Source: an uncultured Chloroflexia bacterium (GTDB taxonomy: Bacteria > Chloroflexota > Limnocylindria > Limnocylindrales > CSP1-4). From it: a stretch of 64,000 bases of DNA. The position numbers and the translations under genes were made by a program. The notes beneath the pieces were generated by a model that was given only the letters and a program-made list of their open reading frames with translations, was not told the origin of the DNA and made no database searches. The DNA lies in the NCBI GenBank assembly GCA_963800275.1, contig CAWDAI010000008.1, positions 19,447-83,446 on the forward strand, read 5' to 3'. This document shows positions 2,375-27,548 of the stretch, piece by piece (the first letter of the stretch is position 1; each line of letters opens with the position of its first letter).

Positions 2375-3319
2375 ATGGACATCCCACGCTTGGAGGCCTT
2401 CCTCGAGGTCGCGCGATTGGGTTCGATGCGCGCGGCGGCTCGGTCGCTGCATCTGGGACAGCCGGCACTCTCGGCGCGCATCGTGGCCCTGGAGGATGAA
2501 CTCGGGGCGCGGGTCTTCGAGCGCACCAAGCGTGGCGTCCGGCTGACGCTCGCGGGCCAGGCACTCGTGCCTCACGCCGAGCGCGCCATCGAGGCGGTGG
2601 ACGCGGGCCGTGCTGCCGTGCGGCAGGTGGAGCAGGGTGACGATGGCGAGCTGGCCATCGCGGCTGCGGGCGCCATCAACGCTTCGCTGGTGCCCGAGCT
2701 GGTGGCCCGCTTCCGGCGCTACCACCCGGGTGTCCACCTCCACGTCCACACCGGCTCGACGGAGCGCATCGTGGAGCTGGTGGCCTTCGGCACGGCGCAG
2801 CTGGGACTGCTCTGCCGCAGCATCCCCACACGTGACCCACGCGTGCGGGTGACACCCATCTACGAAGAGGTCTCCACCCTCGTCGCCCGGCCGGAGCACC
2901 CATTCGTGCGCGAGGGCGCGATCCCGCTGGCACGCCTCGGCGATGCCACCCTCATCTACTTCGACCGCGGCTCAGCCGACTACGAGGCGGCGCAGTCGCT
3001 GCTGAGGGAAGGCAGTGTCACCCCCTACGGGATCATCGAGGTGGACTCCGTGGACACTGCGCGGCGCCTCGTGGAGCGTGGCCTCGGCGTGGCCTTCCTG
3101 CCATCGACCGCAGCCGAGCCGGGGATCGAGGCCGGCCGTCTGGCCCAGGTCGCCCTCGCTGATGTCCGGCTGCCGCGGCGACAGGTCGTCGTGCTCGAGC
3201 GGGCAGCGGCCTCCACGTGGCCGCCCGTGGAGACCCTCCGTCGGCTGCTGGGCGAGGCGGGTGCCTTCTTGCCCGGCACCTTCCCCATCAGCTCGCCTCG
3301 CTCGGATCCACCGGCGTGA
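2375..3319 (+). CDS. LysR-family transcriptional regulator
   Basis: N-terminal HTH (LEAFLEVARLGSMRAAARSLHLGQPALSARIVALEDELGARVFERTKRGVRLT) and a C-terminal LysR substrate-binding fold; 314 aa. Confidence 0.9.
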   Translation: MDIPRLEAFLEVARLGSMRAAARSLHLGQPALSARIVALEDELGARVFERTKRGVRLTLAGQALVPHAERAIEAVDAGRAAVRQVEQGDDGELAIAAAGAINASLVPELVARFRRYHPGVHLHVHTGSTERIVELVAFGTAQLGLLCRSIPTRDPRVRVTPIYEEVSTLVARPEHPFVREGAIPLARLGDATLIYFDRGSADYEAAQSLLREGSVTPYGIIEVDSVDTARRLVERGLGVAFLPSTAAEPGIEAGRLAQVALADVRLPRRQVVVLERAAASTWPPVETLRRLLGEAGAFLPGTFPISSPRSDPPA

Positions 3320-8422: not shown

Positions 8423-9184
8423 CTAGCCGACCTTGGCCAGGACTTCGGCAGCGCCTGAGCCATCGGCCCCGAAGGCGGGCTCGTCCTCGCGCTGGGGCAG
8501 GCCCCAGGGATTGCCGACGCCGGTGTCATCCTTGTTCTCGGGTGCGTCGGATGCCGCCTCGTCATCGTCGCGGTCCGAGCCGGTGTCGCTCTCGGCCTCG
8601 GCCTCGAACTCGTCCGTTGCCGGCTCTGCGGGTTCGCCACTCGCGTCGGCGTCGACGGTCTCGGCCGCGTCCTCCACGGCGACCGTCGCCTCGGCCTTGG
8701 CCATGGCCTCAGCCGCCTTCGCGGCCGCTGTCGCGGACAGGTCCACGTCCTTGCTGGCGAGGGCCACATGGGGGACCACGATGGCCTCCTCCTCGCCCTT
8801 CCAGACCTGCAGCTCGACGACCACCAGCGGCAAATGCTCGGCGAGGGTCTCGAGCGTGGTCTGGTAGCGATCGGAGAGCGTCTCTGTCACGAGCACCGCC
8901 ACGTGTTCCTTGTCGGGGTGGCGGACGCGGTTGCGAGCCCAGTTGTCGAGGACGCCGAAGCCGCGCGACGCCTCCAGCTCGCCCAGCTGTACGTCGACGC
9001 TGAAACAGCGCTCGTCGTCGATCGCGGCGAACGAACGTGCGTCGTCGTCGTGGTCACCCTCGGCCGCAGTCAGCTCGCCCAGGCCCAGCCGTGACGGCTG
9101 CTCGGAGAGCCACGTGCACATCCAGGCCTCGTCCTTGCCCAGGTCGGTGACGGTGGAAACCGCACCCGAAACGATGTTGGTCAT
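8423..9184 (-). CDS. Hypothetical protein with highly acidic, disordered C-terminal tail
   Basis: Internal start MTNIVSGAV (CAT 9182-9184). The N-terminal 130 aa look globular. The C-terminus is an Ala/Glu/Asp-rich tail (…EAEAESDTGSDRDDDEAASD…). The upstream 300 aa of ORF 8423..10087 have out-of-frame composition. Confidence 0.45.
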   Translation of the reverse strand: MTNIVSGAVSTVTDLGKDEAWMCTWLSEQPSRLGLGELTAAEGDHDDDARSFAAIDDERCFSVDVQLGELEASRGFGVLDNWARNRVRHPDKEHVAVLVTETLSDRYQTTLETLAEHLPLVVVELQVWKGEEEAIVVPHVALASKDVDLSATAAAKAAEAMAKAEATVAVEDAAETVDADASGEPAEPATDEFEAEAESDTGSDRDDDEAASDAPENKDDTGVGNPWGLPQREDEPAFGADGSGAAEVLAKVG

Positions 9185-9469
9185 CCCGAAGATCCCTCGC
9201 GCTACACAGGCCGGATGGCCGGCGGGAGTGCCAGACACCTCGGTCTGATTACAGCCGTACGGGGGTGGCTGGTCCACGGCCCCGAAGGTCCGCCCCCCCA
9301 TGATCCGGCCGGTGCGTCTCGGCACCTCCAGGCCGCTCGACCGTGCAGCGGGCTCGCGGCCACCATTCGCGTCGAGCACGCGCCATCCCGCGAGCACGTG
9401 TGTGAGAACATTAGGGTCCCCGGAATACGCCCGCGCCCGCTCTTGCCCGCGCTCCCGAAAGGAGCTCAG

Positions 9470-10195
9470 ATGCCTTCCCGGTCCACGTCCCCCAAGCCCA
9501 CCACCAAGTCGGCCACGGCAGTGGCCAAGCCCGCTGCCCGCTCGAAGGCAGTCGCGCTGCCGAAGGCGGCGGCCAAGGGCAGGTCGGTGGCCAGCTCGCA
9601 GAAGACCAGGGCCGCCAGCAAGCCGGTCGCGCCGGTGGTCCCCGAGCCACAGGAGCTGGTGCGGCCGCTGCTCAAGGTGCGACAGGCGCGTGAGTTCACG
9701 AGCAGGAAGGTGACGAGGGCCGAGCTCCACGCCATCACGGAGGCCGCGCGCTGGTCTGGCAGCAGCCGCAACGAGCAGTCCTGGCGTTTCATCGTGCTGC
9801 GTGACCGCACTCGCATCCGTGACATCGCCGAGCTGGGGCTGCCCCAGACTCGCGGACTCCGCACGGCCACGGCCGCGGTCGCGATCGTGTTGCCTGACGA
9901 GCCCGGCCGCGAGATCTCTCGCGCGTTCGACGACGGCCGCGCTGCGGAGCGCATGCTCATCGCCGCGCACCTGCTGGGTCTGGGTGGCGGCATCTCGTTC
10001 GTGCGGCGCGACGTCCGCGACCGCATCAACGAGGCCCTCGGTCTGCCGGCCAAGCGCTCGGTGCCCACGATCGTGGCCCTCGGTCACCCGACCGAGGACG
10101 CCCTGCAGTCGAAGTCACGACCTGGCCAGGCCCGGCTCCCTCGCGAGGAGGTCATCTTCGAGGAGCGTTGGCCGGACGAGCCTGCGCACCCATAG
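9470..10195 (+). CDS. Nitroreductase-family protein with N-terminal Lys/Ala/Pro-rich histone-like tail
   Basis: AAAGGAG RBS 6 nt upstream of ATG 9470. N-terminal 60 aa PKPTTKSATAVAKPAARSKAVALPKAAAKGRS... resemble actinobacterial HU/H1-like tails. The rest is a nitroreductase fold (RKVTRAELHAITEAARWSGSSRNEQSWRFIVL). Confidence 0.7.
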   Translation: MPSRSTSPKPTTKSATAVAKPAARSKAVALPKAAAKGRSVASSQKTRAASKPVAPVVPEPQELVRPLLKVRQAREFTSRKVTRAELHAITEAARWSGSSRNEQSWRFIVLRDRTRIRDIAELGLPQTRGLRTATAAVAIVLPDEPGREISRAFDDGRAAERMLIAAHLLGLGGGISFVRRDVRDRINEALGLPAKRSVPTIVALGHPTEDALQSKSRPGQARLPREEVIFEERWPDEPAHP

Positions 10196-12577: not shown

Positions 12578-12655
12578 CGTCGTGTGCCGAGTGAGGGGTC
12601 CCGAGTGGCCCGTTCGGTGGGGTGCGCTCAGGAGCAGCCTGAGTATCCTTGCCCC

Positions 12656-13594: not shown

Positions 13595-16500
13595 GTGTTC
13601 CGCTACGCTGCGAGTGCCAATCGGGTAGCGGGGAGGCCGGTCATCGTCAGCTGTGGGACTTGCGCTGCGGACAACGCGGCTGGACGACGTTTCTGCGATC
13701 AGTGCGGCGCCAGTCTCATCGACGCATGCCCGAGCTGCGGGGCACAGAACCGAGCGGAGGCGCGATTCTGCGGCGACTGCGGCCAGGCCCTCGGCAACGG
13801 TCTCGATGCCGCAGCGCAGCGCGCGGGATCGTCCGCTGCCGTACCGATCCGCAGCCAGCCTGCCGCGGAGCGTCGTCTGGTCTCGGTGCTCTTCGCCGAT
13901 CTTGTCGCCTTCACCAAGTACTCCGAGGGGCGAGACCCGGAGCTCGTGCGCGAGACGCTGACCCGCTACTTCGAGTCCACGCGCACCGTGATCGAGCGTC
14001 ACGGCGGGCAGGTGGAGAAGTTCATCGGCGACGCTGTGATGGCGGCCTGGGGTGCACAGCGCGCGAACGAGGATGACGCCGAGCGCGCGGTGCGGGCCGC
14101 GCTGGAGGTGGTGAACGCCGTACGCGAGCTGGACGAGGGGCTGCGCGCTCGCGTGGGCGTCCTGACCGGCCAGGCCGCCGTGACCCTCGGCGCCACCGAC
14201 CAGGGCATGGTCGCGGGCGACCTGGTCAACACCGCCGCCCGCCTGCAGGCCGTGGCGCCGCCCGACACCGTGCTGGTGGGGGAAGCCACGATGCAGGCCG
14301 CGACAGGCGCCATCGCCTTCGAGCCGGCCGGCGAACAGGTGCTGAAAGGCAAGTCCGCCCCCGTGCCGGCGTGGCGCGCCCTGCGTGTCGTGGCCGATAA
14401 GGGCGGGCGTGGCCGAGGGGAGGGCCTTGAGCCGCCATTCGTAGGGCGCGAGATCGAGCTGCGCCTGCTGAAGGACGTGGTCAACGCCGCGAGCACCGAA
14501 CAGCGCCCGCGACTCGTCTCCATCACCGGGCCGGCGGGTATCGGCAAGAGTCGCCTGGCGTGGGAGTTCGAGAAGTACGTCGATGGCCTCGTCGAGCGGA
14601 TCTACTGGCACCGCGGACGCTCGCCCAGCTACGGCGAGGGCATCGCCTTCTGGGCCCTGGGTGAGATGGTCCGCCGTCGTGCCGGTCTGGCCGAGGGTGA
14701 CGACGAGGCCACGACACGTGAGCGGATCCACGCGGCCGTGTCCGAGTTCATCGCTGCCGGCGAGGCTGAGTGGATCGAGCGCTCCCTGCTCGTGCTGCTG
14801 GGCCTGGAGGCACCGCCGGACGGCGGGCGCGAGACGCTCTTCGCGGGCTGGCGTACCTTCTTCGAGCGCATCGCGGCCCGACAGACCACCGTGCTCGTGT
14901 TCGAGGACCTGCAATGGGCCGACGATGGCCTGCTCGACTTCATCGACCACCTGCTCGAGTGGTCCCGCGACGTGCCCATCCTCGTCGTCGGCCTGGCCCG
15001 GCCAGAGCTGCTCGATGAGCGACCCGGATGGGGCACGGGCAAGCGTTCGTTCAACGCCATCGGCTTGGAACCCCTGACCGACGACCAGATGCGCGATCTG
15101 CTGCGAGGGCTCGTGCCCACGATGCCCGACGACGCCGTGGCCCAGGTCGTGGCGCGCGCGGACGGGATCCCGCTCTACGCCGTCGAGATGGTGCGCATGC
15201 TCATCGCCGACGGCTCGCTCGTCGCTGGGCTCGACGGCACGTACGCGGCGACCAGGGAGCTGGGCACGCTGGCGCTGCCCGACACGCTGCGCGCGCTCGT
15301 GGCCTCGCGCCTCGACGCGCTGGATGCCACCGACCGGGCCCTGCTCCAGGACGCCACCATCCTGGGCCAGACCTTCGACCACCGCGCCCTCGCACGCATC
15401 ACGGACCGCGACGAGGACGAGGTGGAGGCCCGGCTTCGAGCACTCATGCAGCGCGAGCTGGTGGAGATCTCCGTCGACCCGCGTTCACCCGACCGGGGCC
15501 AGTATGGCTTCGTGCAGGCGGTCATCCGCGAGGTCGCCTACGAGACCCTCTCGCGCCGGGACCGTCGAGCCCGTCATCTCGCCACCGCGCGGTACTACGA
15601 GGCCGCCGGTGATGAGGAGCTGGCGGGAGTCCTGGCTGCCCACTACCTCGGCGCCTACAAGGCCTCTGACCCGGGACCCGAGGCGGACGCCCTCGGCGCG
15701 CAGGCGCGCCGCGCGCTCGTGTCGGCGGCCGCTCGCGCCCTCACGCTCGGTTCACCGGCGCAGGCCCTCGGCCACCTCGAGTCCGCGCTCGAGACCACCG
15801 ACGATCCCCTCGAGCAAGCTGGTCTCCTGGCTCGCGCTTCCACCGCCGCGTCGGTAGCGGGACGCAAGGACCTGGCCATCGATCAGGCCTCCCGTGCGGC
15901 AGCGATCTTCGATGAGGCGGGGCAGGACCGCTCCGCGCTCGAGGCGCTGGCGCTGAAGGGAGGGTTCCAGACGGACGCCGGTTACGACGAAGACGCGCGC
16001 GAGCTGCTCATCGAGGCCGCCGCGAGGGCGTCCGCGCCGGAGGACGCGGATGTGCGGGCCGATCTGCTGGCTCGCCTCAGTCGCGTACACATGCGGCTGC
16101 AAGAGGAGCCGGAGGCGATCGCTGCGGCTGACCAGGCGCTCGCCCTGGCCGAGCCCCTGGGTCTGGACCGGGTCACGGCCGAGGCACTCATCAACAAGTC
16201 CGGCACGCTGAGCCAGATGCGTCGCATCCGCGAGCCGGCCATCCTGATGCAGGGAGCCGTGGACCTGGCCACGGAGGTCGGCGACATCGAGTTGCAGATG
16301 CGCGCTCGGGCGAACCTCTCCGCGACATACAGCCACCAGGACCTCGACCTGGCCATCGCGGCCTCGGTCGAGGCCCTCGAGATCGCCCGGCGCCTGGGGA
16401 CGAGTGGGTACGTCGAGTGGCTCGTGGGTGGACTCGTGCTCTTCGAGTTCGCTCGCGGACACGACTGGGACGCAGCCATCGAACTGCTCGACCGCGCCAT

Positions 16501-17188
16501 CGACGACACCGACGCCGACGCCGACTACATGCGCTACCTGTTCCTGGGCGTCCGACAGCAGTACCTGACCATGCGTGGGCAGGAGACTGGCGGCACCGTC
16601 GAAGCCATGCGTGGGATCCTCGCGTCCGCGGACTTCGTGCCCTTCCAGCGCTTCGATCACATGTCGGCCTACGAGACGTTGCTTGCCGGTCGCCCGGAGA
16701 CCGCGGTCCGTGAGTTCCAGGCGACGTACGGGGTGATGGCCCGCGCGATCGGCGAGGCGCTCGCCGGCGGCAGCATCGCAGCCGCGTATGCGCGCGACGT
16801 CGTGGCGGCCCGCGATGCCTCCAAGCGGCTGCAGGAGTGGGAGGAGGGCGGTCGTGGCGGCGATGCGATCCGTGAGCTCGGTCGCGCCGTCGTCCATGCG
16901 CTCGAAGGGCGCGAGGAGTCGGCTACGGCTTCGTTCGTGCGGGCGGTCGAACGAATGCGAGCTGGGAAGAACCACTTCTGGGTGGCGGTCCTGCAAGCGG
17001 TCGCGCTCGAGCTCCAGCCGGCACGGTCCAGCACCGATGGCTGGGAAGAGGAGGCCCGGGCGCGCTTCGAGCTGCTGGCTGCCGAACCCTGGCTGCGGCT
17101 CCTCGACGCATCGGTGGCGCGCGGGCACGGGCGCGATGCCGAGCCATCGGGTCCAGCGTCGGCCAGTCTCGTCGGGGGTGGAGCATGA
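13595..17188 (+). CDS. Double zinc-ribbon / class III adenylate-guanylate cyclase / P-loop NTPase (STAND/AAA-like) / TPR-repeat protein, copy 1
   Basis: Zinc ribbons: CGTCAADN...CDQCG...CPSCG...CGDCG. Cyclase catalytic motifs: LVSVLFADLVAFT, FIGDAVMAAWG, GDLVNTAARLQ. P-loop GPAGIGKSRLAWEF, Walker B LVFEDLQWAD, then about 500 aa of TPR-like helical repeats. No C-terminal HTH. 1197 aa. Confidence 0.9.
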   Translation: MFRYAASANRVAGRPVIVSCGTCAADNAAGRRFCDQCGASLIDACPSCGAQNRAEARFCGDCGQALGNGLDAAAQRAGSSAAVPIRSQPAAERRLVSVLFADLVAFTKYSEGRDPELVRETLTRYFESTRTVIERHGGQVEKFIGDAVMAAWGAQRANEDDAERAVRAALEVVNAVRELDEGLRARVGVLTGQAAVTLGATDQGMVAGDLVNTAARLQAVAPPDTVLVGEATMQAATGAIAFEPAGEQVLKGKSAPVPAWRALRVVADKGGRGRGEGLEPPFVGREIELRLLKDVVNAASTEQRPRLVSITGPAGIGKSRLAWEFEKYVDGLVERIYWHRGRSPSYGEGIAFWALGEMVRRRAGLAEGDDEATTRERIHAAVSEFIAAGEAEWIERSLLVLLGLEAPPDGGRETLFAGWRTFFERIAARQTTVLVFEDLQWADDGLLDFIDHLLEWSRDVPILVVGLARPELLDERPGWGTGKRSFNAIGLEPLTDDQMRDLLRGLVPTMPDDAVAQVVARADGIPLYAVEMVRMLIADGSLVAGLDGTYAATRELGTLALPDTLRALVASRLDALDATDRALLQDATILGQTFDHRALARITDRDEDEVEARLRALMQRELVEISVDPRSPDRGQYGFVQAVIREVAYETLSRRDRRARHLATARYYEAAGDEELAGVLAAHYLGAYKASDPGPEADALGAQARRALVSAAARALTLGSPAQALGHLESALETTDDPLEQAGLLARASTAASVAGRKDLAIDQASRAAAIFDEAGQDRSALEALALKGGFQTDAGYDEDARELLIEAAARASAPEDADVRADLLARLSRVHMRLQEEPEAIAAADQALALAEPLGLDRVTAEALINKSGTLSQMRRIREPAILMQGAVDLATEVGDIELQMRARANLSATYSHQDLDLAIAASVEALEIARRLGTSGYVEWLVGGLVLFEFARGHDWDAAIELLDRAIDDTDADADYMRYLFLGVRQQYLTMRGQETGGTVEAMRGILASADFVPFQRFDHMSAYETLLAGRPETAVREFQATYGVMARAIGEALAGGSIAAAYARDVVAARDASKRLQEWEEGGRGGDAIRELGRAVVHALEGREESATASFVRAVERMRAGKNHFWVAVLQAVALELQPARSSTDGWEEEARARFELLAAEPWLRLLDASVARGHGRDAEPSGPASASLVGGGA

Positions 17189-20100
17189 GCGTCTTCTGCA
17201 CCAGCTGTGGCCAGGCCAATGGCGACGGCGCTGCCTTCTGCGACAGCTGCGGCAGCACGCTCAACTCGGGCTGTCCCGAGTGTGGTGCCGAGAACCGGCC
17301 CGAGGCGCGCTTCTGCCGTAGCTGCGGTACGCACCTGGCTGACGCGGATGTGCCGACGCCGGCGCCGGCTCCGGCCGGGACACGAACCTTGCCCGCATCG
17401 GCCGATGGCGGCACCGCGGAGCGCCGCCTGGTGTCGGTGCTCTTCGCCGACCTCGTGTCCTTCACCAGCTATTCCGAAGGCCGCGATCCCGAGCTCGTAC
17501 GTGAGACGCTGACCCGCTACTTCGAGGCCACGCGACACGCCATCGAGCATCACGGCGGCCGGGTGGAGAAGTTCATCGGCGATGCGGTGATGGCGGCGTG
17601 GGGCGCCCCCAGGGCCAACGAGGACGACGCCGAACGGGCGGTGCGCGCCGCCCTCGAGGTGGTCGAGGCGGTCCGCAACCTCAACGAGGGGCTGGAAGCC
17701 CGCGTGGGCGTGCTCACCGGCCACGCCGCGGTCACCGTGGGTGCGACCGACCAGGGCATGGTCGCGGGCGACATGGTCAACACGGCCGCGCGCCTGCAGG
17801 CAGCAGCTCCCCCCAGCACCGTGCTGGTAGGGGAGGCCACGATGCAGGCGGCGTCCGGCGCCATCGCCTTCGAGGAGGCCGGCGAGCAGGTCCTCCGCGG
17901 CAAGACGGCCCCGGTCCCGGCCTGGCGCGCCCTGCGCGTCATCGGTGATCGCGGTGGGCGCAGCCGCGGCGAGGGCCTGGAGCCCCCGTTCGTCGGCCGC
18001 GAGCTGGAGCTGCGCCTGCTCAAGGACCTGGTCCACGCGGTCGATGAGGACCGGCGTCCGCGACTCGTCTCCATCACCGGACCCGCCGGCATCGGCAAGA
18101 GCCGCCTGGCGTGGGAGTTCGAGAAGTACCTCGACGGCCTGGTCGACGGCGTCTATTGGCACCGCGGCCGTGCCCCCAGCTATGGCGACGGGGTCACCTT
18201 CTGGGCGCTCGGCGAGATGGTCCGCAAGCGGGCCGGGCTACTCGAGTCGGACGACGAGAACACCACGCGCGAACGGGTTCGCGCGACCGTCGAGGAGTGG
18301 GTGCCCGACCAGAAGGACCGGGCCTGGGTGGAGCCGGCGCTGCTGACCCTGCTCGGCCTCGAGCCACCACCGGCCGGCGGCCGCGACGTGCTCTTCGCGG
18401 CCTGGCGGATCTTCTTCGAGCGCGTGGCTGCGCATGGCACGACGATCCTGCTGTTCGAGGACCTGCAGTGGGCCGACAGCGGGCAGCTCGACTTCATCGA
18501 TCACCTCATGGAGTGGGCCCGTGACGTCCCCTTGCTGGTGGTGACCCTTGCCCGCCCCGAGCTGCTCGAGCGCCGGCCCGGCTGGGGCACCACGGCTCGT
18601 GCCTTCAATGCGGTCGGACTGGAGCCGCTCACGCCGGCCAATATGCGTGAGCTCCTGCTGGGCCTCGTCCCTGGCCTGCCCGCGGACGCGGTCTCGACGG
18701 TCCTCGAGCGAGCCGATGGCATCCCCCTCTACGCGGTGGAGACGGTCCGCATGCTGGTGGCCGACGGCCGCCTGCTGGCTGACGGCGACGGCACCTTCCG
18801 CCCGGCCGGCGAGCTCGGTGAGCTGGCCATGCCCGATTCTCTGCGGGCGCTGATCGCCTCTCGCCTCGACGCGCTTGACGATGCCGATCGCACCCTCCTG
18901 CAGGACGCGGCGGTGCTGGGCAAGACCTTCACGCCGGACGCGATCGCAGCCATCTACGGCCAGGACGAGGCGGAGATCGCATCGCGCTTGCGGGCACTCT
19001 CGCGCCGAGAGCTGCTGGAGATCGCGGTCGATCCCGCCTCACCCGAGCGGGGCCAGTTCGGGTTCGTCCAGTCAGTCGTCCGCGAGGTCGCTTACGAGAC
19101 CCTGTCCCGGCGTGATCGACGGACTCGACATCTGGCCGCGGCGCGCTACTTCGAGGGCCTGGGGGATGAGGAGCTGGCGGGCGTGCTCTCGACGCACTAC
19201 ATGGCCGCGTACGAGGCCTCGGAACCCGGTCCGGAGGCGGATGCGCTGCGCATCCAGGCGCGCCTGGCCCTGCAGGGGGCAGCCGAGCGTGCGATGGACC
19301 TGGGTGCCTACGACCAGGCTCGCCTGAGCTTGCAGCGGGCCCTCTCGATCACCGAGGACGCCGCGGAGCGAGCATCGCTCCTCGAACGCGCCGCCGCCGC
19401 CGCCGACATCGAGGGGGCATACGAAGAGGCCGAGCGGCTCGGCCGGGAGGCGCTCGCTGCCTACGAGTCCATCGACGACCATACCGGCGCGGCCCGGACC
19501 TCGGCCAGGCTGGGCATGATCCTGCTCAACGCCTCGCGGCTGACCGAGACCGTCGAGCTGCTGGAATCAGCGCTGGCCAAGGCCGATCGGCCGGAGGACG
19601 CGAAGCCGCGGGCCGAGATCCTGGCGAGCCTCTCTCGCGCCCACATGCGGCTGCTCCAGACGGAGCAGGCCCTGGCTCGGGCCGACGAGGCGCTGGCCAT
19701 CGCCGAGCCCCTGCGCCTGCGGCACACCATCGGCGAGGCCTTCATCAACAAGGCCGGCGCCCTATCGCAGTCGGGTCGGCTGGTGGAGCCGATCGTCTTG
19801 ATGTCAGCAGCCGTCGACCTGGCCCACGAGCAGGGTGACATGGCCCTCGAGCTGCGTGCGCGCAACAACCTTGCCGCCACCCAGGGCACGGAGGACGGCG
19901 ACGCCGCCATGCGGGTCAGCCGCGAAGCCTACGCGCTGGCCACGCGCCTGGGCATCCGACAGATGTCGACCTGGCTGGCTGGTGCCATCGCCCAGGGAGC
20001 GCTCTACGAGGGGCTCGACTGGGATACGGCGCTGCGCCAGGTGGATACCGAGATCGACGGCAGCATGTCCGACGCCGACCGGGTGCGACTGCTCTCGCTG

Positions 20101-20754
20101 CGCGAGGCGCTGATGGCCTTCCGCGGGGACGATCGGACCGAGCTGCTGGCTGCCCGCGAGCGGCTGACCGTGCAGATCAGCGATCCCGACGAGGAGTTGT
20201 CGGAGGCGGTGAATGCCGCGCATGCGTCGTTCGTCGACGGCCGCATCGACGAGGCGCTGGCCGCCTACGCGCCGTACATCCGGGCACAGACCCAGAACTC
20301 CCTGGAGGCACGTTGGGGATATGTCCTCGCGGCACAGTTCGCCCGAGACCCGGAGGCGGCTCGACGCGGCCTCGAGGCCCTGGACTTCGAGCCCTACGCC
20401 GGGACCTACGTCGACGGCGTACGCCGGCTGGCCGAAGCGGGCGTGGCCGCGCTCGAGGGACAGCCCGGGGCTGCGCTGGCGTCCTATCGCGCCGCTATCG
20501 AGGCCTGGCGCGCCTGCGGCGCCCGCTTCGATGTCGCCATCGCCCAGATGGCTGCCCTGACCTCGTTGCCAGACGAGCCGTCCATCGAGGGTTGGGCCGA
20601 TGAGGCTCGTGAGCGCTTCGAGATCGTGAGATCGCCGGCGCTGCTCGAGCGACTCGAGCAGGTGCTGGCGACCCGTGCCATCGAACGAGCCAACGGCACG
20701 CAGGCACCCGAGGCGAAGCCTGCCAATGCCGCCAGGGACGCAGGCGCGCGCTAG
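17185..20754 (+). CDS. Double zinc-ribbon / class III cyclase / P-loop NTPase / TPR-repeat protein, copy 2 (tandem paralog)
   Basis: ATGA overlap with copy 1. Same motif set (CTSCG...CDSCG...CPECG...CRSCG; FADLVSFT; IGDAVMAAWG; GDMVNTAARLQ; GPAGIGKSRLAWEF; LLFEDLQWAD). 1189 aa. Confidence 0.9.
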   Translation: MSVFCTSCGQANGDGAAFCDSCGSTLNSGCPECGAENRPEARFCRSCGTHLADADVPTPAPAPAGTRTLPASADGGTAERRLVSVLFADLVSFTSYSEGRDPELVRETLTRYFEATRHAIEHHGGRVEKFIGDAVMAAWGAPRANEDDAERAVRAALEVVEAVRNLNEGLEARVGVLTGHAAVTVGATDQGMVAGDMVNTAARLQAAAPPSTVLVGEATMQAASGAIAFEEAGEQVLRGKTAPVPAWRALRVIGDRGGRSRGEGLEPPFVGRELELRLLKDLVHAVDEDRRPRLVSITGPAGIGKSRLAWEFEKYLDGLVDGVYWHRGRAPSYGDGVTFWALGEMVRKRAGLLESDDENTTRERVRATVEEWVPDQKDRAWVEPALLTLLGLEPPPAGGRDVLFAAWRIFFERVAAHGTTILLFEDLQWADSGQLDFIDHLMEWARDVPLLVVTLARPELLERRPGWGTTARAFNAVGLEPLTPANMRELLLGLVPGLPADAVSTVLERADGIPLYAVETVRMLVADGRLLADGDGTFRPAGELGELAMPDSLRALIASRLDALDDADRTLLQDAAVLGKTFTPDAIAAIYGQDEAEIASRLRALSRRELLEIAVDPASPERGQFGFVQSVVREVAYETLSRRDRRTRHLAAARYFEGLGDEELAGVLSTHYMAAYEASEPGPEADALRIQARLALQGAAERAMDLGAYDQARLSLQRALSITEDAAERASLLERAAAAADIEGAYEEAERLGREALAAYESIDDHTGAARTSARLGMILLNASRLTETVELLESALAKADRPEDAKPRAEILASLSRAHMRLLQTEQALARADEALAIAEPLRLRHTIGEAFINKAGALSQSGRLVEPIVLMSAAVDLAHEQGDMALELRARNNLAATQGTEDGDAAMRVSREAYALATRLGIRQMSTWLAGAIAQGALYEGLDWDTALRQVDTEIDGSMSDADRVRLLSLREALMAFRGDDRTELLAARERLTVQISDPDEELSEAVNAAHASFVDGRIDEALAAYAPYIRAQTQNSLEARWGYVLAAQFARDPEAARRGLEALDFEPYAGTYVDGVRRLAEAGVAALEGQPGAALASYRAAIEAWRACGARFDVAIAQMAALTSLPDEPSIEGWADEARERFEIVRSPALLERLEQVLATRAIERANGTQAPEAKPANAARDAGAR

Positions 20755-20799: not shown

Positions 20800-22755
20800 A
20801 TGACGCTTCGCCGCGTCGTCACGCTTGCCCAGGCGTCGACGATGATCCTGCTGCTCCTGCCTGGGCCGCTCCAGACCGGCTCTGCCTCGGTTCGTGCTGC
20901 CGTGCAGCCGGTCGAGCCGGCCGCGACGGTGGTCTATGACGCTTCTGGCCGCGGCATCGGCTGCCTGCCCGGCGGCAAGAGGTACAAGGGCCCGGCCTCC
21001 ATCAAGGACCCGCCCTGGCCGCCCGGAGCGGAACCGACCCCGAGCCCCGAGCCATCGCCGAGCCCTGAGCCATCCCCGAGCCCTGAGCCATCGCCGAGCG
21101 CCGAGGCCTCAGCCGCGCCGTCTGACGTGCCTTCGCCTGCGCCGGAGGCGGCGATCCGGCTGGCCGTGGCGACCATCGATAGCCCGACCCAGCCAGAGCC
21201 GATGACAGCCGACGCGATCCGGCCGGCCTCCGAGCTCATCACCGGCGTCGACGTCAGCCACCACCAGCAAGACCTTGACTTCGAGGCCGTGCGCGAGGCC
21301 GGCCACCGTTTCGCGATCATGAAGGTGACCGAGAACAACGACCACCTGGACACCTACTTCTCCACCTACGTGGGGCAGGCCAGGGCGGCCGGCCTGGAGG
21401 TCGGTGCCTACCACGTCTTCGACTACACCCTGGATGGCAAGTCGCAGGCCGATCACTATGTCGATCGGGTCGAGCAGGTGATCGGTTTCGACGGCCTGCT
21501 CCCGCCGGTGGTGGATGTCGAGTGCTGGCCGGCCTACTACGGCGCCTCCATCCATTCGGTCTCCGCCGCCCGCCTGCGGGACTTCGTCGACGAGGTCTAC
21601 CGACGCACGGGCATGGCCCCGGTGGTCTACACCTCCGAGTACATGTGGCGCGAGGTGGTGGGCAACCCCGATGGCTTCGCGGACCTGCCCCTGTGGGCGG
21701 CCTGTTGGGGCTGCGACCAACCGATCACGTTGCCCGAGGGGTGGGACGACTGGACCTTCTGGCAGGACGGGCTGACCAAGATCCCTGGTCGACGGGCCAG
21801 GGTGGATGGCAACTACTTCGCCGGCTCGCGCCAGCAGCTGCGCTCGCTCGTGCAGCGCCCCTTCTCCATCGCCGGCGGTGCGGTGGCCACAGCGGGCGGC
21901 ACGGTGGCACTCGATCTGGGTGGACGGCGGGGTAGCGAGATCCGCACCTCCCTCGACGGCGAGGAGTGGTCGGACTGGCAGGCGCTGCGGCCCACGCCCA
22001 CGGTGGAGATCGGCACGGCTGAAGGCCAATACGTGGTCTACGCTCAGCTCAAGGACGGCCCCGGCCTGCTCGCGCCGGTCGTGAGCGACACCATCGTGGT
22101 GGACGCCACGCCGCCGGAGGTCACGCCGCCCTCGGTCGGCCTGCGCCTCGGGCCGCTCGTCGACGGGCCGGCCGGTATCCCGGTGGCCGTGGGGTGGCAG
22201 GCTCGGGACGAGACCGCCGGCCTCGCTGGCGCGAAGGTGGAGGTCGCCTGTGCCGAGGTCTCGCTGACGAGCGATGCCCCGGGTTCGGCCGCACCGGCCG
22301 AGTCCGTGACCTGGCAGGCTGAGGCCGAGCTGGCCGCGGGCGAGAGCTGCGACGTGACCGCCATCGTTCCCGACGGCGCCGGCAACACCAGCCGCGCCAC
22401 GACCTCGGGCGTGGAGGTCAGCATCGTGACCCCCGACCGCGCCGGAGCTGCCAGCGTGGCCGGAGATGAGGTGGGCGTGGTGGCCAACCGCGGTCCCGAT
22501 GCGGGCCGGGCGGCACTCCTCGTCGACGGCGCCGCCGTCGCGCTCGTGGACCTGTGGGCCGCCGAGCCGGGAGGACCGGAGATCGTGCACGTGGCCACCC
22601 TGGCCCCCGGCCCCCACATCGTGGCGATCCAGCCCACGGACAGCGCCGACCCCGGCTCCACCGGCACCGCGGTCGATGTCACCGGCTTCGTGACCATCAC
22701 TGGCGGCGCGCTCAGAGCGGGTAGCGCATCAGCGGCAACGACCGTCCCGGGATGA
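20800..22755 (+). CDS. Secreted GH25-family muramidase (lysozyme) with PSPEPS linker and C-terminal Ig-like/β-rich domains
   Basis: Signal peptide, then PSPEPSPSPEPSPSPEPSPS linker. GH25 motifs GVDVSHHQQ...DFEAVREAGHRFAIMKVTEN...AYHVFDY. 300 aa of β-rich C-terminal repeats. Confidence 0.8.
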   Translation: MTLRRVVTLAQASTMILLLLPGPLQTGSASVRAAVQPVEPAATVVYDASGRGIGCLPGGKRYKGPASIKDPPWPPGAEPTPSPEPSPSPEPSPSPEPSPSAEASAAPSDVPSPAPEAAIRLAVATIDSPTQPEPMTADAIRPASELITGVDVSHHQQDLDFEAVREAGHRFAIMKVTENNDHLDTYFSTYVGQARAAGLEVGAYHVFDYTLDGKSQADHYVDRVEQVIGFDGLLPPVVDVECWPAYYGASIHSVSAARLRDFVDEVYRRTGMAPVVYTSEYMWREVVGNPDGFADLPLWAACWGCDQPITLPEGWDDWTFWQDGLTKIPGRRARVDGNYFAGSRQQLRSLVQRPFSIAGGAVATAGGTVALDLGGRRGSEIRTSLDGEEWSDWQALRPTPTVEIGTAEGQYVVYAQLKDGPGLLAPVVSDTIVVDATPPEVTPPSVGLRLGPLVDGPAGIPVAVGWQARDETAGLAGAKVEVACAEVSLTSDAPGSAAPAESVTWQAEAELAAGESCDVTAIVPDGAGNTSRATTSGVEVSIVTPDRAGAASVAGDEVGVVANRGPDAGRAALLVDGAAVALVDLWAAEPGGPEIVHVATLAPGPHIVAIQPTDSADPGSTGTAVDVTGFVTITGGALRAGSASAATTVPG

Positions 22756-23200: not shown

Positions 23201-23579
23201 CCTGGCTACTTCTTCTTCTTGCGTCGTCCTTCTTCTTGCCGTCGTCCTTCTTCTTGCCGTCGTCCTTCTTGCGGCCCCGGCCGAGCAGGGGGATCCTGCG
23301 CTCGTCCTCGATCCAGTGGGGCTTGGACGAGCGGGCCCAGGACGGACCGGCCTGGCGGCGCAGGATGATCCAGAGACCGATCACGCCCAGCACCGCCACC
23401 CCGAAGAAGATGATGCCGGCCAGGCGCAGCGAGCCGTCTGAAGACGCACCATCGAGCTTGGTGATGGCATCGGTGGAGAGATTGACCGCATCCTCGACAT
23501 TCCCTGCGATGGCTGCGGCAAGGGCCTGGTCGACGATGGCGTCCACGTCCACGCCGGCCAGCCCGAAGTCGGTGAGCAT
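23085..23579 (-). CDS. Single-pass membrane segment with Lys/Asp-rich tail. It is probably the frameshifted C-terminus of the upstream large secreted protein.
   Basis: DFGLAGVDVDAIVDQALAAAIAG continues the helical repeat style of gene 23381..26158. Then a TM helix LAGIIFFGVAVLGVIGLWIIL and KKDDGKKKDDGKKKDD (18-nt tandem repeat 23222-23272). Reading frame differs from the upstream gene by one base. Confidence 0.35.
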   Translation of the reverse strand: MLTDFGLAGVDVDAIVDQALAAAIAGNVEDAVNLSTDAITKLDGASSDGSLRLAGIIFFGVAVLGVIGLWIILRRQAGPSWARSSKPHWIEDERRIPLLGRGRKKDDGKKKDDGKKKDDARRRSSQVVLRNDGGGRGGAPPPATPRRGRGHHPAGRSRQAPLGL

Positions 23580-26158
23580 GTCACGGGGCTCGGCCGCCCG
23601 CAGCTGGGCGCGGTGGACCTAGCTGGCAGCGTCGGCCTGCTTCGACGGCGGTCTCGGCCCCGGCCTGCAGGTCCTCGCAGCGTTCGGGCGCTCTCGAAGT
23701 CGGACTTGATCGATTCGAGGGCGTTGAGGTCGGGCAGCTCCGCCTGCGCGTCGCTCGCAGACTTGATCCAGCGCTCTGCTTCCTTGGCGCTCTCGACCGC
23801 GGCCCCGAAGTTGCCGGCTGCGACCGGGTCGGCCACGACCGCGGGGATGTGCCAACTGGGCACCAGCAGCTCCAGCGTGGCCAGGGCGTTGCCCACGGTC
23901 ATCGCCTCCGCCGCGCGTGCCTCCACGCGCTTCCGCAGCGCGGCCATCTCCGCTCCGCTGGTGACCGCTTCGAACTGGGGCCGGACCTCGTCACGCAGGC
24001 CGGCCTGCGGCAGCGCCTCGTCCGCGCTCGTGGCGGCATCGACCACGGCCTGCGCGTCCCCGATGATCCTGGTGCCGGCGTCGATCTCGCCGGTCTCGAG
24101 CGGGCGCGTCACCGCGGCGGGGATGGCCCACTCGCCGGCCGCCACCTGCAGGGCCTCCAGCGCGCGTCCGGCGATGGACGCTTTGCGGTGGTCGGAGGCG
24201 GCTTCATCGGCCAGCGTCTGGAGGCTGGCGGCCGTGGCGCTGTTCTCGTAGCGGAGCTTGTATTTGTCGAGGAAGTTCGCCTGCGGCAGGGCGACGTCGG
24301 CGGCGGTGATCTCCTGGACCGCCCGAGTGGCCGGCGCGATGGCCGCCGAGATGTCACTCCAGCGCTGCTCGCTGAGGGCGTCGCGCACGGCCAGTGGCAT
24401 GAACCAGCCGGCCGGTGCAGCGCTCTGCATCGCACCAAGGTCGGGGGCCACGCCCCGGGCACCCTTGAGCAGGTTGTCGACGAACTCGGTAACCGCGTCG
24501 AGTTCCGCCTCGTTGGCGGCCGCCTCGAACTGCGGCTGCACGATGTCCGGCAGGTTGGCCACCGGCAGCAGCCGGTCGGCCTCGATGAGGTTCTGGTAGA
24601 CCTCGCGCGATTTGTCGATGCGGTCCATGGCGGAGCGGAACTCCCAGTCATCCATGTCCTTGCGCACGGCACGCGGCGCGCCCAGGGGGGCGATGTCGGC
24701 GAGAAACTGGTGGTAGGCGGCTCGCGCCTGTGAGCGCAACATCAGCTCGGACTCGCCGCCCGGCAGGTCCGCGGCGATGCCGAACCTGTCCAGCAGGTTT
24801 TGGGCGAAGTCGAGATCGTCGAGGTTGGCCGCGTAGGCCGGGTCGGCTGCGGCCGGCACCAGGCCGCGCTCATCGACCGCATCGAGCCATTCCCGATAAT
24901 CGACGCCGGTGGACGTCCCGGTCTCGGGACCCGCGGTGCCGATGTACTTGGTCTCTCCCCGAAGCATGGAGCCGACGACCTCGTCCCACTGCTCCTGGGG
25001 CATGCGCTCGCGGACGGCGGCGACGATGCCGCAGGCGGCGGCGTCCTGGGCCTCGATGCGGGTCTGATAGTCATCGGGCGACTGCGGCTGGACGACCATC
25101 CACTCGGAGAGGTCCAGCTCCAGCGGGTTGGCGGAGGCGGGCTCGCAAGTTGTCCCGCGCATGGCGCTCGCGGTCCACTCGGCCATACCCTCGCGCAGCC
25201 AGATGTCCGGGAAGTTGTCAGCTCCGTACCAGGCGTGGGCCAGCTGGTGGTCCGTAGCCTCCAGTGGGAATTCGCTGAGCTGGACGATGCCGGAAGCCCC
25301 GTGGGTGCTGGCGTAGCCACCGACGTCCCGCGACGGGGCCATGCGCACCACCACCGTACTGTCGCCCGGGATGGGCTGGCCGATGAAGCTGTCGAGGTCG
25401 CGCAGTACCTCGGGAGCGACGCTGCCGGCCGCATCCAGCCAGCCGTCACCACCGCTCCAGGCCTGCAACTCGAACGCACGGTCACGCGGACCGATGATCG
25501 TGTCCGGCAGGAGGCGGTCCTGGCGCACGCCCTCGAAACAGGTGAAGACCGAACCGGGCCTGTTCCTGGAGCTCGCGGTGGTTCGATAGCCGCTGCTGGT
25601 GATCTCCATGGGCGTGCCCAGCGGTTGGCTGAAGCCCCACTGGGAAAGGTCGTCCACGGCGACCGAGACGCTGCCCACGTTCGTGTCCTGGCCGGTCACA
25701 CAGAGGTAGATGTAGCTGTCGTTCACGCGCGCGGGCGTGGTGCGCTTGGCGGCGTTGTTGCCGGGGTCCGCATCGAGGGCGTAGCGCAGCGTGAAGGAAC
25801 CAGAATCACCCTGGGAGATGGGCTTCTTGTTGAGCACGGAGATCGGCTTCCAGAGGCCGGGAAGACTGTCCCGGCTCCTGGCGAGCGTGAAGGCTCCGGT
25901 GATGTCTGGCGGTGGCGCCGTCTCCTCGACGGCCAGCGGGCCCCAGGCCCGCTTCGGCCGCCAGGTCGTCCCGGTCAGCGGGCTCAACTTCACATCCATC
26001 CGCACATCGATGGTGCCCTCGTCCGGGTGGACCTGGTATTTCACATCCGAGGATTCCTTGAGCTGGTCGGAGATGGCGGCGACAGGCAGCGCCAGCACGA
26101 TCGAAGCCACGATCGCGAGCAGCAGCGAGACGAGGGCGCGGCAGGCCCCAGACGACAT
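23381..26158 (-). CDS. Large secreted M1-aminopeptidase-like (HQxxH variant) protein with C-terminal 45-aa helical repeats; 3' end apparently frameshifted
   Basis: Start MSSGACRALVSLLLAIVASIVLALPVAA (CAT 26156-26158). M1-type motif DHQLAHAWYGADNFPDIWLREGMAEW parallels HExxHxW...WLNEGFA but with Gln in place of the catalytic Glu. At least 4 repeats of ..ALPQAxLxD...QFEA... follow. The last 85 aa before the stop at 23381 have out-of-frame composition. Confidence 0.65.
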   Translation of the reverse strand: MSSGACRALVSLLLAIVASIVLALPVAAISDQLKESSDVKYQVHPDEGTIDVRMDVKLSPLTGTTWRPKRAWGPLAVEETAPPPDITGAFTLARSRDSLPGLWKPISVLNKKPISQGDSGSFTLRYALDADPGNNAAKRTTPARVNDSYIYLCVTGQDTNVGSVSVAVDDLSQWGFSQPLGTPMEITSSGYRTTASSRNRPGSVFTCFEGVRQDRLLPDTIIGPRDRAFELQAWSGGDGWLDAAGSVAPEVLRDLDSFIGQPIPGDSTVVVRMAPSRDVGGYASTHGASGIVQLSEFPLEATDHQLAHAWYGADNFPDIWLREGMAEWTASAMRGTTCEPASANPLELDLSEWMVVQPQSPDDYQTRIEAQDAAACGIVAAVRERMPQEQWDEVVGSMLRGETKYIGTAGPETGTSTGVDYREWLDAVDERGLVPAAADPAYAANLDDLDFAQNLLDRFGIAADLPGGESELMLRSQARAAYHQFLADIAPLGAPRAVRKDMDDWEFRSAMDRIDKSREVYQNLIEADRLLPVANLPDIVQPQFEAAANEAELDAVTEFVDNLLKGARGVAPDLGAMQSAAPAGWFMPLAVRDALSEQRWSDISAAIAPATRAVQEITAADVALPQANFLDKYKLRYENSATAASLQTLADEAASDHRKASIAGRALEALQVAAGEWAIPAAVTRPLETGEIDAGTRIIGDAQAVVDAATSADEALPQAGLRDEVRPQFEAVTSGAEMAALRKRVEARAAEAMTVGNALATLELLVPSWHIPAVVADPVAAGNFGAAVESAKEAERWIKSASDAQAELPDLNALESIKSDFESARTLRGPAGRGRDRRRSRPTLPARSTAPSCGRPSPVTCSPTSGWPAWTWTPSSTRPLPQPSQGMSRMRSISPPMPSPSSMVRLQTARCAWPASSSSGWRCWA

Positions 26159-26291
26159 GGGACGCTCCTCTGTGGATGCGGACATGGGTGAGTGCGGTTC
26201 TGTGCAGTTGGGACCGTAACGCGAACGCCAACAAGGGGCAAGGTGGACCATCGGCAGCGTCGGGACAGGACCGCTCACCCATACTCGGTCC

Positions 26292-27548
26292 GTGCCCCGT
26301 CGTCGCCTCGCCATGCTCTACGCCCTCGCGGGCATCAGCCTTGGGCTGATCCTGCCTTTCACCGTGCCGCTGCTCGCCGAACGCGGCCTGGGCGCGGTCG
26401 AGATCGGCGTGGTCATGAGCTTGACGGGGGTCGCGGCCCTGGTCTCCTATCCCGTGTGGGGCGCCATCGCAGACGGCTGGCTGGGCCGACGCCGGACCGT
26501 CGCCGTCGCGGCCGTGCTGGCGGCCCTCGGTGGCGTGTCGCTCATGCTGGCGGGTCAGGACCCGCTGGCCCTGGCCCTGGCCCTGGCCGTGGTCATCGTG
26601 GGCACGCTGGCCTGGAACCCGTTGATCGACGCGCTCGCGCTCGCGGTCCTGGGCGACGGTTCCTCCGACTACGGTCGGCTGCGCCTGTGGGGCTCGCTGG
26701 GCTGGGCTGCATCAGCCATGTCCGCGGGCGTGGTCTGGACGCTGGTCGGGCCGACGCCGGTGTTCCTCGCCTTCGTGGCGGCCGCGCTCCTGGTGGGCGG
26801 GCTGGTGCTCCTGCCGCTCCCGGGGGAGGTCGGGAGCGCCTCTGCCGGCGACGGCTCGGCCGGCGACGACACCCGCCCGCCGCTGCGCTCGTGGTTGCCG
26901 CTGGTGGCCACGCCGCTGATGCTCGGGTTCCTGCTCGGCCTGCTGGTCACCTCGCTCGGTGAGCACGCCTCGTGGCGCTTCATCGGCCTGCGCATCCTGG
27001 ACCAGGGCGGTGGCGTCTTCCTCATCGGCCTGGCGGCCTCATTGCCGGCGCTGGTGGAGGTCCCCGTGTTCCTCTCGTCGCGCCGGCTGGCTGGCTACTT
27101 CGGGCTGCGCCGGCTGTTCGTGGGTGGAGCAGCGGTCGCGGCCATCATCATGGGTCTCATCGCGGTCGCCCCCGAGCCATGGATGGTGGCCGGGCTGCGC
27201 ACCCTCGACGGAGTGTCCTACGCGATGCGCTACACGGCCATGGTGCTCATCGTGGGCGCCCTCCTGCCTCGCTCGCTGTTCGCCTTCGGGCAGTCGGTGG
27301 CCTGGTTCGTCTATGCCGGGATCGCCCCCATCGTGGCCGACGCGGCCGGCGGGCTCATCTACGAGGCCTTCGGGGCAGAGGCGCTGTTCCTGGCCACGAT
27401 GGTGGCGCTGGCCGTCGGGGGCGCCATCGTCTGGCTGGTGCTGCGCGGGCCGCGCTTCGGTCCGCAAGGGTCGCTGCCGGCCGCGGCGGCAGGATCGGTG
27501 GCTCCTCCGCCGGCGGGTCCCGAGGCACCGCTCCCGCCGCCGGGCTGA
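26292..27548 (+). CDS. MFS-superfamily transporter
   Basis: 12 predicted TM segments, MFS-like loop motifs (GAIADGWLGRRR); 418 aa (alternative start at MLYALAG). Confidence 0.8.
   Translation: MPRRRLAMLYALAGISLGLILPFTVPLLAERGLGAVEIGVVMSLTGVAALVSYPVWGAIADGWLGRRRTVAVAAVLAALGGVSLMLAGQDPLALALALAVVIVGTLAWNPLIDALALAVLGDGSSDYGRLRLWGSLGWAASAMSAGVVWTLVGPTPVFLAFVAAALLVGGLVLLPLPGEVGSASAGDGSAGDDTRPPLRSWLPLVATPLMLGFLLGLLVTSLGEHASWRFIGLRILDQGGGVFLIGLAASLPALVEVPVFLSSRRLAGYFGLRRLFVGGAAVAAIIMGLIAVAPEPWMVAGLRTLDGVSYAMRYTAMVLIVGALLPRSLFAFGQSVAWFVYAGIAPIVADAAGGLIYEAFGAEALFLATMVALAVGGAIVWLVLRGPRFGPQGSLPAAAAGSVAPPPAGPEAPLPPPG

Follow-up and report, generated by a model that had tools for sequence, protein, structure and literature searches.

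The locus considered here raises the question of what two adjacent, paralogous cyclase genes do when neither encodes a DNA-binding output. The stretch analysed (the window) comprises 64,000 nucleotides of contig CAWDAI010000008.1 from an uncultured Chloroflexia bacterium, and the two genes, referred to as A and B, each encode a zinc ribbon, a class III nucleotidyl cyclase, a STAND-type P-loop NTPase and a C-terminal sensor resembling tetratricopeptide repeats (TPRs). A preliminary description of the window had regarded this combination as unusual and had proposed the pair as a system of antiviral, Avs-like logic. The analysis instead places A and B as ordinary members of a large, widely annotated family that has no helix-turn-helix (HTH) domain. 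The reading that we favor, with a probability of roughly 65%, is that they are soluble, ligand-gated nucleotidyl cyclases built on a MalT/LAL-type STAND switch and act in ordinary intracellular signalling; a defence role is unlikely.

Genes A (13595..17188) and B (17185..20754) are adjacent on the + strand and share the four bases ATGA, and the open reading frames (ORFs) bear out the earlier account of ATGA-coupled tandem genes of 1197 and 1189 aa. Their features are as follows.

13595..17188, + strand: gene A, 1197 aa, GTG start; zinc ribbon, class III cyclase, AAA_16 STAND NTPase and TPR-like sensor.
13652..13789, + strand: double zinc ribbon of gene A, residues ~20-65, with four CxxC motifs (Pfam DZR E 4.7e-10; Zn_Ribbon_1).
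13877..14356, + strand: class III cyclase homology domain of gene A, residues 95-254 (PF00211 E 2.3e-19; PDB cyclases 1e-18).
14435..14989, + strand: AAA_16 P-loop NTPase of gene A, residues 281-465 (PF13191 E 7e-22), with Walker A GPAGIGKS and Walker B VLVFED.
15662..17134, + strand: C-terminal TPR-like sensor of gene A, residues ~690-1180, the most divergent part.
17185..17188, + strand: ATGA junction, shared by the end of A and the start codon of B (translational coupling by stop/start overlap).
17185..20754, + strand: gene B, 1189 aa, ATG start; paralog with the architecture of gene A, 100% identical to database cluster P0001.
17197..17337, + strand: double zinc ribbon of gene B, residues 5-51 (Zn_Ribbon_1 E 2.3e-13; DZR 5e-10).
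17428..17907, + strand: cyclase homology domain of gene B, residues 82-241, with D89, K129, D133, M192, N199 and R203.
17986..18543, + strand: AAA_16 NTPase of gene B, residues 268-453, with Walker A K305/S306 and Walker B E425/D426.
19102..20697, + strand: TPR-like alpha-solenoid sensor of gene B, residues ~640-1171, with a polar patch of R818, R865, E868, R891, N895 and G923.

The GTG of gene A is the sole in-frame start codon 5' of its zinc ribbon, and the product is 97% identical to database cluster P0041. A promoter and terminator scan of 11-23.5 kb gave no signal above shuffles.

Both proteins are cyclase-STAND-TPR fusions. In the Pfam scan, matches above the curated cut-offs were obtained in each protein for DZR/Zn_Ribbon_1 (residues ~5-65), Guanylate_cyc (PF00211; E 2e-19 for A and 5e-20 for B, 70.2 and 72.4 bits vs. 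a cut-off of 21.9) and AAA_16 (E 7e-22 and 3e-22, 79-80 bits vs. a cut-off of 32.6), and the TPR matches were weak in both. The domain order first described (zinc ribbon, cyclase, P-loop NTPase, TPR) is therefore upheld, and the catalytic and Walker motifs quoted with it, LFADLV(A/S)FT, KFIGDAVMAAWG, GD(L/M)VNTAARLQ, GPAGIGKSRLAWEF and (V/I)L(V/L)FEDLQWAD, were all found in both translations.

The absence of an HTH, also claimed at the outset, was likewise borne out. Neither GerE nor any other HTH family was detected by Pfam in A or B even at E<=0.1, and because the LAL regulator at 48607-51624 yielded GerE at E 1e-17 under the same scan, the absence can be taken as real. This control gene (+ strand; AAA_16 at residues 27-196, TPR_12, and GerE at 943-997) is the genuine LAL regulator with a LuxR HTH that had been noted at 48.6 kb, and it shares 27% identity with the NTPase and repeats of A and B. 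An AlphaFold2 (AF2) model of protein B, built on an alignment of 101 relatives with a mean pLDDT of 87.7, contains an unbroken helical solenoid over residues ~640-1171 (pLDDT >95) followed by a disordered tail only, with no terminal HTH bundle; according to the model there is no room for a cryptic terminal HTH in protein B.

The same model places a cyclase fold at residues 78-252 with the NTPase core after it, followed by helical and winged-helix modules and the repeat sensor on one polypeptide, which is the STAND layout of a nucleotide-binding oligomerization domain (NOD) leading into a sensor. The zinc ribbon is poorly defined, with low confidence, and the linker at 53-75 is disordered. The best full-length fold match of B in the PDB is PH0952 (6mfv), a STAND protein with a TPR sensor (E 4e-12, 753 aligned columns), and the B cyclase domain superposes best on Rv1900c (TM 0.91, root-mean-square deviation 1.9), CyaB, CyaC and Cya2, with TM values of 0.76-0.91 over the first three. 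A PDB sequence search with the proteins returned cyclase domains only (E 1e-18). In HMMER alignments, made with no formal subclass profile, the arm region of the query is 1-4 residues shorter than in Cya2 and CyaC; in the classification of Linder & Schultz, class IIIc reportedly has a shortened dimerization arm relative to IIIa/IIIb. Among NCBIfam models, the best match is the TOMM system kinase/cyclase fusion TIGR03903 (E 6e-63, model positions 272-905 of 1267), but A and B reach 213 and 208 bits vs. a cut-off of 705.75 and have no Pkinase match and no kinase domain, and they do not belong to the TOMM kinase/cyclase family.

Is a cyclase-STAND fusion without a transcriptional output unusual, as was first suggested? 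The distribution of relatives indicates that it is common. All 120 of the best 90%-identity clusters, drawn from at least 8000 candidates, carry the same Pfam string (zinc ribbons, PF00211, PF13191 and sometimes TPR), and PF00196 occurs in none of the 120. These clusters carry names such as 'class 3 adenylate cyclase/tetratricopeptide (TPR) repeat protein', 'AAA family ATPase' and 'adenylate/guanylate cyclase domain-containing protein', and the named close relatives are metagenome-assembled genomes of Chloroflexota / Candidatus Limnocylindria. HMMER, run without filters against 1.84 billion representatives at 50% identity, returned 16,972 proteins at E<=1e-30, of which the 150th match still reaches E 1e-178 and is collinear from residue ~4 to ~1160 in a protein of 1150-1190 aa.

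On contigs sampled at one genome per species, at least 590 stretches encode relatives, spread over Chloroflexota (Limnocylindria), Gaiellales, Solirubrobacterales, Dormibacterota and Methylomirabilota; several genomes hold at least three dispersed copies, and three loci lie on one 3.55-Mb contig. Homologs also occur in 237 plasmid records, mainly megaplasmids of Sinorhizobium, Rhizobium, Burkholderia and Cupriavidus. Two annotated proteins of cultured Sinorhizobium and Burkholderia, WQO70366.1 of S. medicae and WP_342312182.1 of B. pyrrocinia, have exactly the order DZR - Guanylate_cyc - AAA_16 - TPR with no GerE, and the plasmid homologs are collinear with the window protein over residues 2-722 at 30-33% identity. 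A review figure includes a Roseiflexus (Chloroflexota) cyclase with terminal TPR repeats (A7NMN0) beside Rv0386 (PMC9552081); a 2026 survey of STAND proteins does not mention cyclases. A and B differ from these HTH-less relatives in sequence divergence, in the sensor repeats and in a Met/Leu second specificity residue.

One close comparison is with the mycobacterial Mclx proteins (Rv0386, Rv1358 and Rv2488c), which resemble A and B in that a class III cyclase at the N-terminus precedes a P-loop NTPase of LAL/MalT type and helical repeats. The Mclx proteins carry a LuxR HTH, whereas A and B lack one, have an extra N-terminal double zinc ribbon and come from Chloroflexota-like genomes instead of mycobacteria. 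With the HTH tested for and absent, A and B are neither of the Mclx/Rv0386 type nor LAL regulators. The combination of a cyclase homology domain with LuxR has been called 'nearly mycobacterial-exclusive' (PMC4452763), and in the wider family the HTH-less layout is the rule and the mycobacterial HTH fusion the exception.

One irregularity was noted within the family: the gene calls of many close relatives (~1080-1130 aa) lack an N-terminal zinc ribbon, with 0 Cys before the cyclase, although their sister sequences have one. Such calls include L002 564-3866 and clusters P0013, P0018, P0019, P0021-23, P0045 and P0047-49, and they could be real variants or late start-codon calls.

Whether the cyclase domain is catalytic was assessed from residue conservation in alignments of 101-124 relatives, with the numbering of gene B. 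The metal-binding Asp residues (D89 and D133), the transition-state N199/R203 and the substrate Lys K129 are invariant in both the upstream-copy and the downstream-copy lineages, and the intact metal Asp pair and Asn-x-x-x-Arg initially read in both window copies thus hold across the relatives. The Walker A Lys/Ser (K305/S306) and Walker B Glu/Asp (E425/D426) are invariant in both lineages as well, and the eight zinc-ribbon Cys are at least 90% conserved across the family. Column entropy in the cyclase is 0.5-0.8 bits vs. 1.5-2.9 bits in the sensor; the cyclase is therefore the least variable part of the protein, indicating selection on catalysis.

The substrate-specifying pair is less regular. 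A check of the K/D vs. E/C pair found the Lys (EKFIGD), but its partner is Met, and the combination is neither canonical K/D nor E/C. This second purine-specifying position lies 7 residues before the Asn and aligns with the Thr of CyaC and the Gly of the guanylyl cyclase Cya2; in canonical pairs, Lys with Asp/Thr denotes ATP and Glu with Cys/Gly etc. denotes GTP, and the residue found here belongs to neither set. Among 73 diverse sequences the position is Met in 46 and Leu in 19, and it is Asp in the Burkholderia homolog and Ser in the Sinorhizobium homolog. With Met/Leu at this position, the nucleotide used by the window's clade is therefore not readable from sequence. An adenylyl preference nevertheless seems most likely given the invariant Lys at the first position and the Asp/Ser of the homologs, as in known adenylyl cyclases, and the family looks adenylyl-cyclase-derived. 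The non-canonical Met/Leu is one of the mildly new details of this study.

A non-canonical second position would also fit a cyclase domain that is not catalytic in vivo and serves as a nucleotide-binding or regulatory module on a TPR scaffold, as has been suggested for M. tuberculosis Mclx2/Mclx3; the mycobacterial relatives Rv1358 and Rv2488c have been reported to lack catalytic residues (PMC4452763). We consider this highly improbable for A and B, in which all six catalytic positions are kept except the Asp/Thr, unlike Rv1358 and Rv2488c, which lack several. No other domain is as conserved as the cyclase, and over 100 relatives show no change in the metal and transition-state residues or the substrate Lys; an active enzyme is expected to show this pattern. 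Among the Mclx proteins, Rv0386 is active as an adenylyl cyclase although its substrate-specifying pair is non-canonical (PMC4452763), and A and B share this feature at the second residue.

How might such an enzyme be controlled? The active sites of class III cyclases form across a dimer interface, and a dimer is needed for catalysis. A rise in local concentration driven by a STAND module would therefore be a natural cyclase switch, and dimeric class III cyclase structures are among the PDB and fold matches. MalT, PH0952 and LAL proteins share with A and B an AAA_16-type NOD followed by a helical-repeat sensor (TPR or SUPR), although the effector of MalT/LAL proteins is a DNA-binding domain and that of A and B an N-terminal enzymatic cyclase. 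For STAND proteins with TPR sensors, a resting, closed, ADP-bound monomer held by autoinhibitory sensor contacts has been described, in which the inducer leads to opening, ATP binding and multimerization, so that the effector domain at one end becomes active (PMC6468293).

Transferred to A and B, this scheme would have the TPR-like sensor and the ADP-bound NTPase core keep the protein closed and monomeric at rest. A ligand, different for each paralog, would bind the variable sensor, upon which the core would open and exchange ADP for ATP. The opened proteins would oligomerize and thereby join their N-terminal class III cyclase domains into dimers, leading to synthesis of a cyclic nucleotide monophosphate (cNMP), probably cyclic AMP (cAMP). 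Instead of binding DNA, the proteins would release a diffusible second messenger for unlinked receptors to read, and A and B would represent tandem duplicates of a lineage-specific expansion, co-translated via the ATGA overlap and fitted with different sensors. We infer the ADP/ATP switch, the oligomerization-driven activation, the nucleotide and the ligand only by analogy with MalT/PH0952 and isolated cyclase domains, because no assayed member of the HTH-less family was found in the literature searched.

The distribution of the family is of a signalling type, with many dispersed paralogs, varied and mostly metabolic neighbors and chromosomal synteny, and it supports the ligand-gated cyclase reading. 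Several points weigh against that reading, the lack of an assayed member being the first. ATP specificity is not assured given the Met/Leu second residue in the clade, no cNMP receptor for the product of A and B was identified, and the role of the zinc ribbon, for which the AF2 confidence is low, is unexplained by the model. In addition, the conserved stop/start overlap between tandem copies, set out below, hints at a functional relation between neighbors that independent sensors would not need.

The two paralogs differ mainly in the part that would recognize the ligand. A and B are 57% identical overall, and in 50-residue windows the identity is 86-88% in the cyclase, 60-76% in the NTPase and winged-helix region and 20-58% in the C-terminal repeats, in agreement with the earlier remark that divergence is greatest in the TPR region. 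The same contrast is seen between genomes: the downstream copies of the window and of the related loci L001, L002 and L004 have core identities of 78-85% and sensor identities of 54-59%, and the upstream copies have 76-79% and 35-43%, respectively. The upstream-copy sensors are no more alike than are upstream and downstream sensors. Gene conversion was considered as the main cause of the greater likeness of the cores and was rejected because the core/sensor contrast is equally present in orthologs of different genomes.

Midway along the solenoid of the variable sensor lies a polar patch (R818, R865, E868, R891, N895 and G923) whose residues are kept by 57-70 of 73 diverse relatives; the Sinorhizobium protein carries all six. 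The patch may serve to contact a ligand common to the family, or it may touch the core and so hold the protein inhibited, and it counts among the mildly new details. A 'carboxylate-clamp'-like reading of R818/R822/N855/R891/N895 was discarded, as the conservation of R822 and N855 is lost once more diverse sequences are aligned, and only the patch was kept.

Are A and B then a pair, as the preliminary description had it? Approximately 70 of 80 genome loci have one copy only, and no partner lies within 10 kb of it; about nine hold two or three tandem copies, which speaks against the pair as a system. Where tandem copies do occur, the arrangement is strikingly uniform: in the 8 readable tandem loci, which belong to Chloroflexota and Gaiellales, stop and start codons overlap at all 10 junctions as ATGA, GTGA or TTGA, and the zinc-ribbon codons begin directly after the NTGA overlap. 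Such translationally coupled arrays were seen in the sampled loci of both groups, and the universality of the overlap in tandem arrays of two phyla is a further mildly new detail. Upstream and downstream copies in the window's clade fall into two sister lineages, which arose before the species did. In the wider tree, upstream and downstream copies do not form two family-wide clades; the two copies of L032 group together as sisters, and the closest branch to the upstream copy of L038 is the single-copy L039. Most simply read, the pattern comes from an expanding family of signalling proteins with rapidly evolving sensors, in which copies have repeatedly been duplicated and lost and arrays have changed in size. 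The idea that A and B are an ancient, obligate pair, suggested at first by the tree of the window's clade and by the NTGA junctions, was set aside, weakened by the predominance of single copies, by the wider tree and by the region-wise identities.

The coupling nonetheless suggests that neighboring tandem copies may co-assemble. In its strongest form, this would be an obligate hetero-oligomer, in which the coupled paralogs form a mixed STAND hub with heterodimeric cyclase sites and two ligands feed one cNMP output. The NTGA overlap at every readable junction favors stoichiometric co-expression, the two copies of the window's clade form separate sister lineages that predate the species, and cyclase and NTPase cores that are 75-88% identical while the sensors differ are what co-assembly would need. 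The family nevertheless works without a partner at most loci, and both copies keep a full catalytic set with no complementary degeneration, unlike true pseudo-heterodimeric cyclases; the lack of two family-wide clades (L032, L039/L038) fits repeated duplication and loss. An obligate hetero-oligomer is thus a possible but doubtful alternative. It is unlikely that the NTGA-coupled copies form a mixed hub for coincidence detection, whose heterodimeric cyclase sites would fire only with two different sensors occupied and whose clade-specific Lys/Met pair could make a nucleotide other than cAMP, and a variant in which the coupled arrays serve defence is still less likely than the hub.

The genomic neighborhood bears on both partnership and defence. 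In the window, a co-directional run comprises a 414-aa protein without a Pfam match, a Pro-rich zinc-ribbon ORF, A, B and a 651-aa GH25 muramidase, beyond which lie a GNAT protein, a 977-aa protein, an MFS transporter and an amidohydrolase. The gene order of L001 (relative 69% identical) is as in the window, and L002 has three tandem copies followed by GH25. More generally, the chromosomal position of the gene among metabolic genes is unchanged in close relatives, and on a 3.7-Mb contig a pair with 55% identity is flanked by another set of genes altogether (GH3, PAC2, YbjN and Band_7). Neighborhoods were read around homologs P0017, P0004 and P0058. Clustering of three genes per side across ~84 loci found no conserved partner gene, with no family in more than 6 loci and some of these being antisense artefacts. 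A nearest-neighbor scan by Pfam and PADLOC of 148 neighbors from 65 loci returned only scattered metabolic Pfam families, among them DAO 5, GNAT 4, SDR 3 and MFS 3, none in more than 5, and no cNMP-binding domain was found among the Pfam families with at least two members.

The alternative of antiviral defence, in the form of an Avs-like STAND or a Pycsar-like system, holds that the TPR region senses a phage protein and that the cyclase product triggers an abortive-infection effector. An NTPase and TPR sensor with an N-terminal enzymatic effector is a fair description of the layout, as had been stated, and the combination of a STAND NTPase, a repeat sensor and an N-terminal enzymatic domain is that of such systems. 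Avs3 (8dgc), with a similar STAND and TPR layout, is among the fold matches at E 1e-9, and the PADLOC PycC models, whose cyclase fold is homologous to that of A and B, match the cyclase domain at E 4e-18. Sensor evolution is fast (35-59% identity vs. 76-85% in the core), and a NERD helicase matching a DRT-associated model lies ~6 kb upstream. The PycC match of 64 bits, however, is no better than the 70 bits of the generic Pfam cyclase, and beside PycC one weak TPR match was the only other PADLOC result, with no match to an Avs, NACHT or other STAND defence model.

Neither a cNMP-binding effector nor any other conserved partner adjoins the gene in the ~84 loci, the PADLOC matches among the 148 neighbors are sporadic with one or two members each, and no homolog was present in 50,697 phage records. 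In close relatives the gene lies in a syntenic position amid metabolic genes, and the NERD helicase is missing from the syntenic L001. Arms-race variation is also a poorer explanation of the family-wide polar patch in the sensor than is a shared ligand or an intramolecular contact. The Avs-like logic first proposed thus did not hold up, and we regard defence of this kind as very unlikely. A and B are not Pycsar, lacking an adjacent cNMP effector, and they are not Avs, lacking a defence-model match or a defence neighborhood; their family is chromosomal, multi-copy and syntenic.

Several neighboring genes were noted in their own right. The NERD helicase (5995-7713, - strand; 572 aa) joins NERD to a UvrD-like helicase and matches the PADLOC model RTasNERD-Hel (DRT-associated) at E 4.6e-45 over nearly the whole model; it also matches C3a187 'NERD+UvrD' in PADLOC, and no reverse transcriptase was recognized beside it. 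The ORF next to it (8423-10087, - strand; 554 aa) has no Pfam or PADLOC match. At 3217-5310 (+ strand) lies a helicase of the UvrD/PcrA type that carries an HRDC domain at its C-terminus; its many generic GajB-model matches in PADLOC are consistent with shared helicase homology.

Immediately upstream of A, the ORF at 12584/12656-13543 (+ strand) confirms the zinc-ribbon/Pro-rich protein that had been reported there: a CxxC-x17-CxxC zinc ribbon precedes a Pro-rich stretch of low complexity, ~250 residues long, and no Pfam family matches. In L001 its position is taken by a 277-aa gene, which more distant loci lack, and the ORF is therefore not a conserved partner of the cyclase. Downstream, the GH25 muramidase (624-651 aa) is encoded at 20800-22755 (+ strand) in the window, 14506-16380 in L001 and 11027-12940 in L002, and has a Pro-rich stretch and a C-terminus of ~330 residues without assignment. 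It adjoins the last cyclase-STAND gene in the window and L002 with a gap of 45-60 nt, is separated from it by a 284-aa gene in L001, and is absent in distant loci. The 977-aa ORF (23381-26314, - strand) has coding-type codon bias and no Pfam or PADLOC match; it is kept at the same relative position in L001 (970 aa) and, according to the clustering of neighbors, occurs in four loci in all, including the window. In base composition, the GC content of the window is 0.65-0.67 at 32-38 kb and 52-56 kb vs. 0.70-0.72 elsewhere, and the AT skew is -0.23 at 26-28 kb and +0.18 at 32-34 kb; these anomalies (26-28, 32-38 and 52-56 kb) may be islands or unusual genes.

For this locus the value of these findings is mainly corrective, in that there is no ground for marking it as a candidate for a new system of immunity or signalling. 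What remains of interest is the odd specificity residue, the conserved tandem coupling and the size of an experimentally neglected sensor family in soil bacteria, with ~17,000 clusters at 50% identity and several copies per genome in abundant soil Chloroflexota and Actinomycetota. If the induced-proximity model is true, A and B would be a simple system in which to test how a STAND switch drives an enzyme that makes a second messenger, and the many divergent sensors of the family would point to a large set of intracellular ligands yet to be named.

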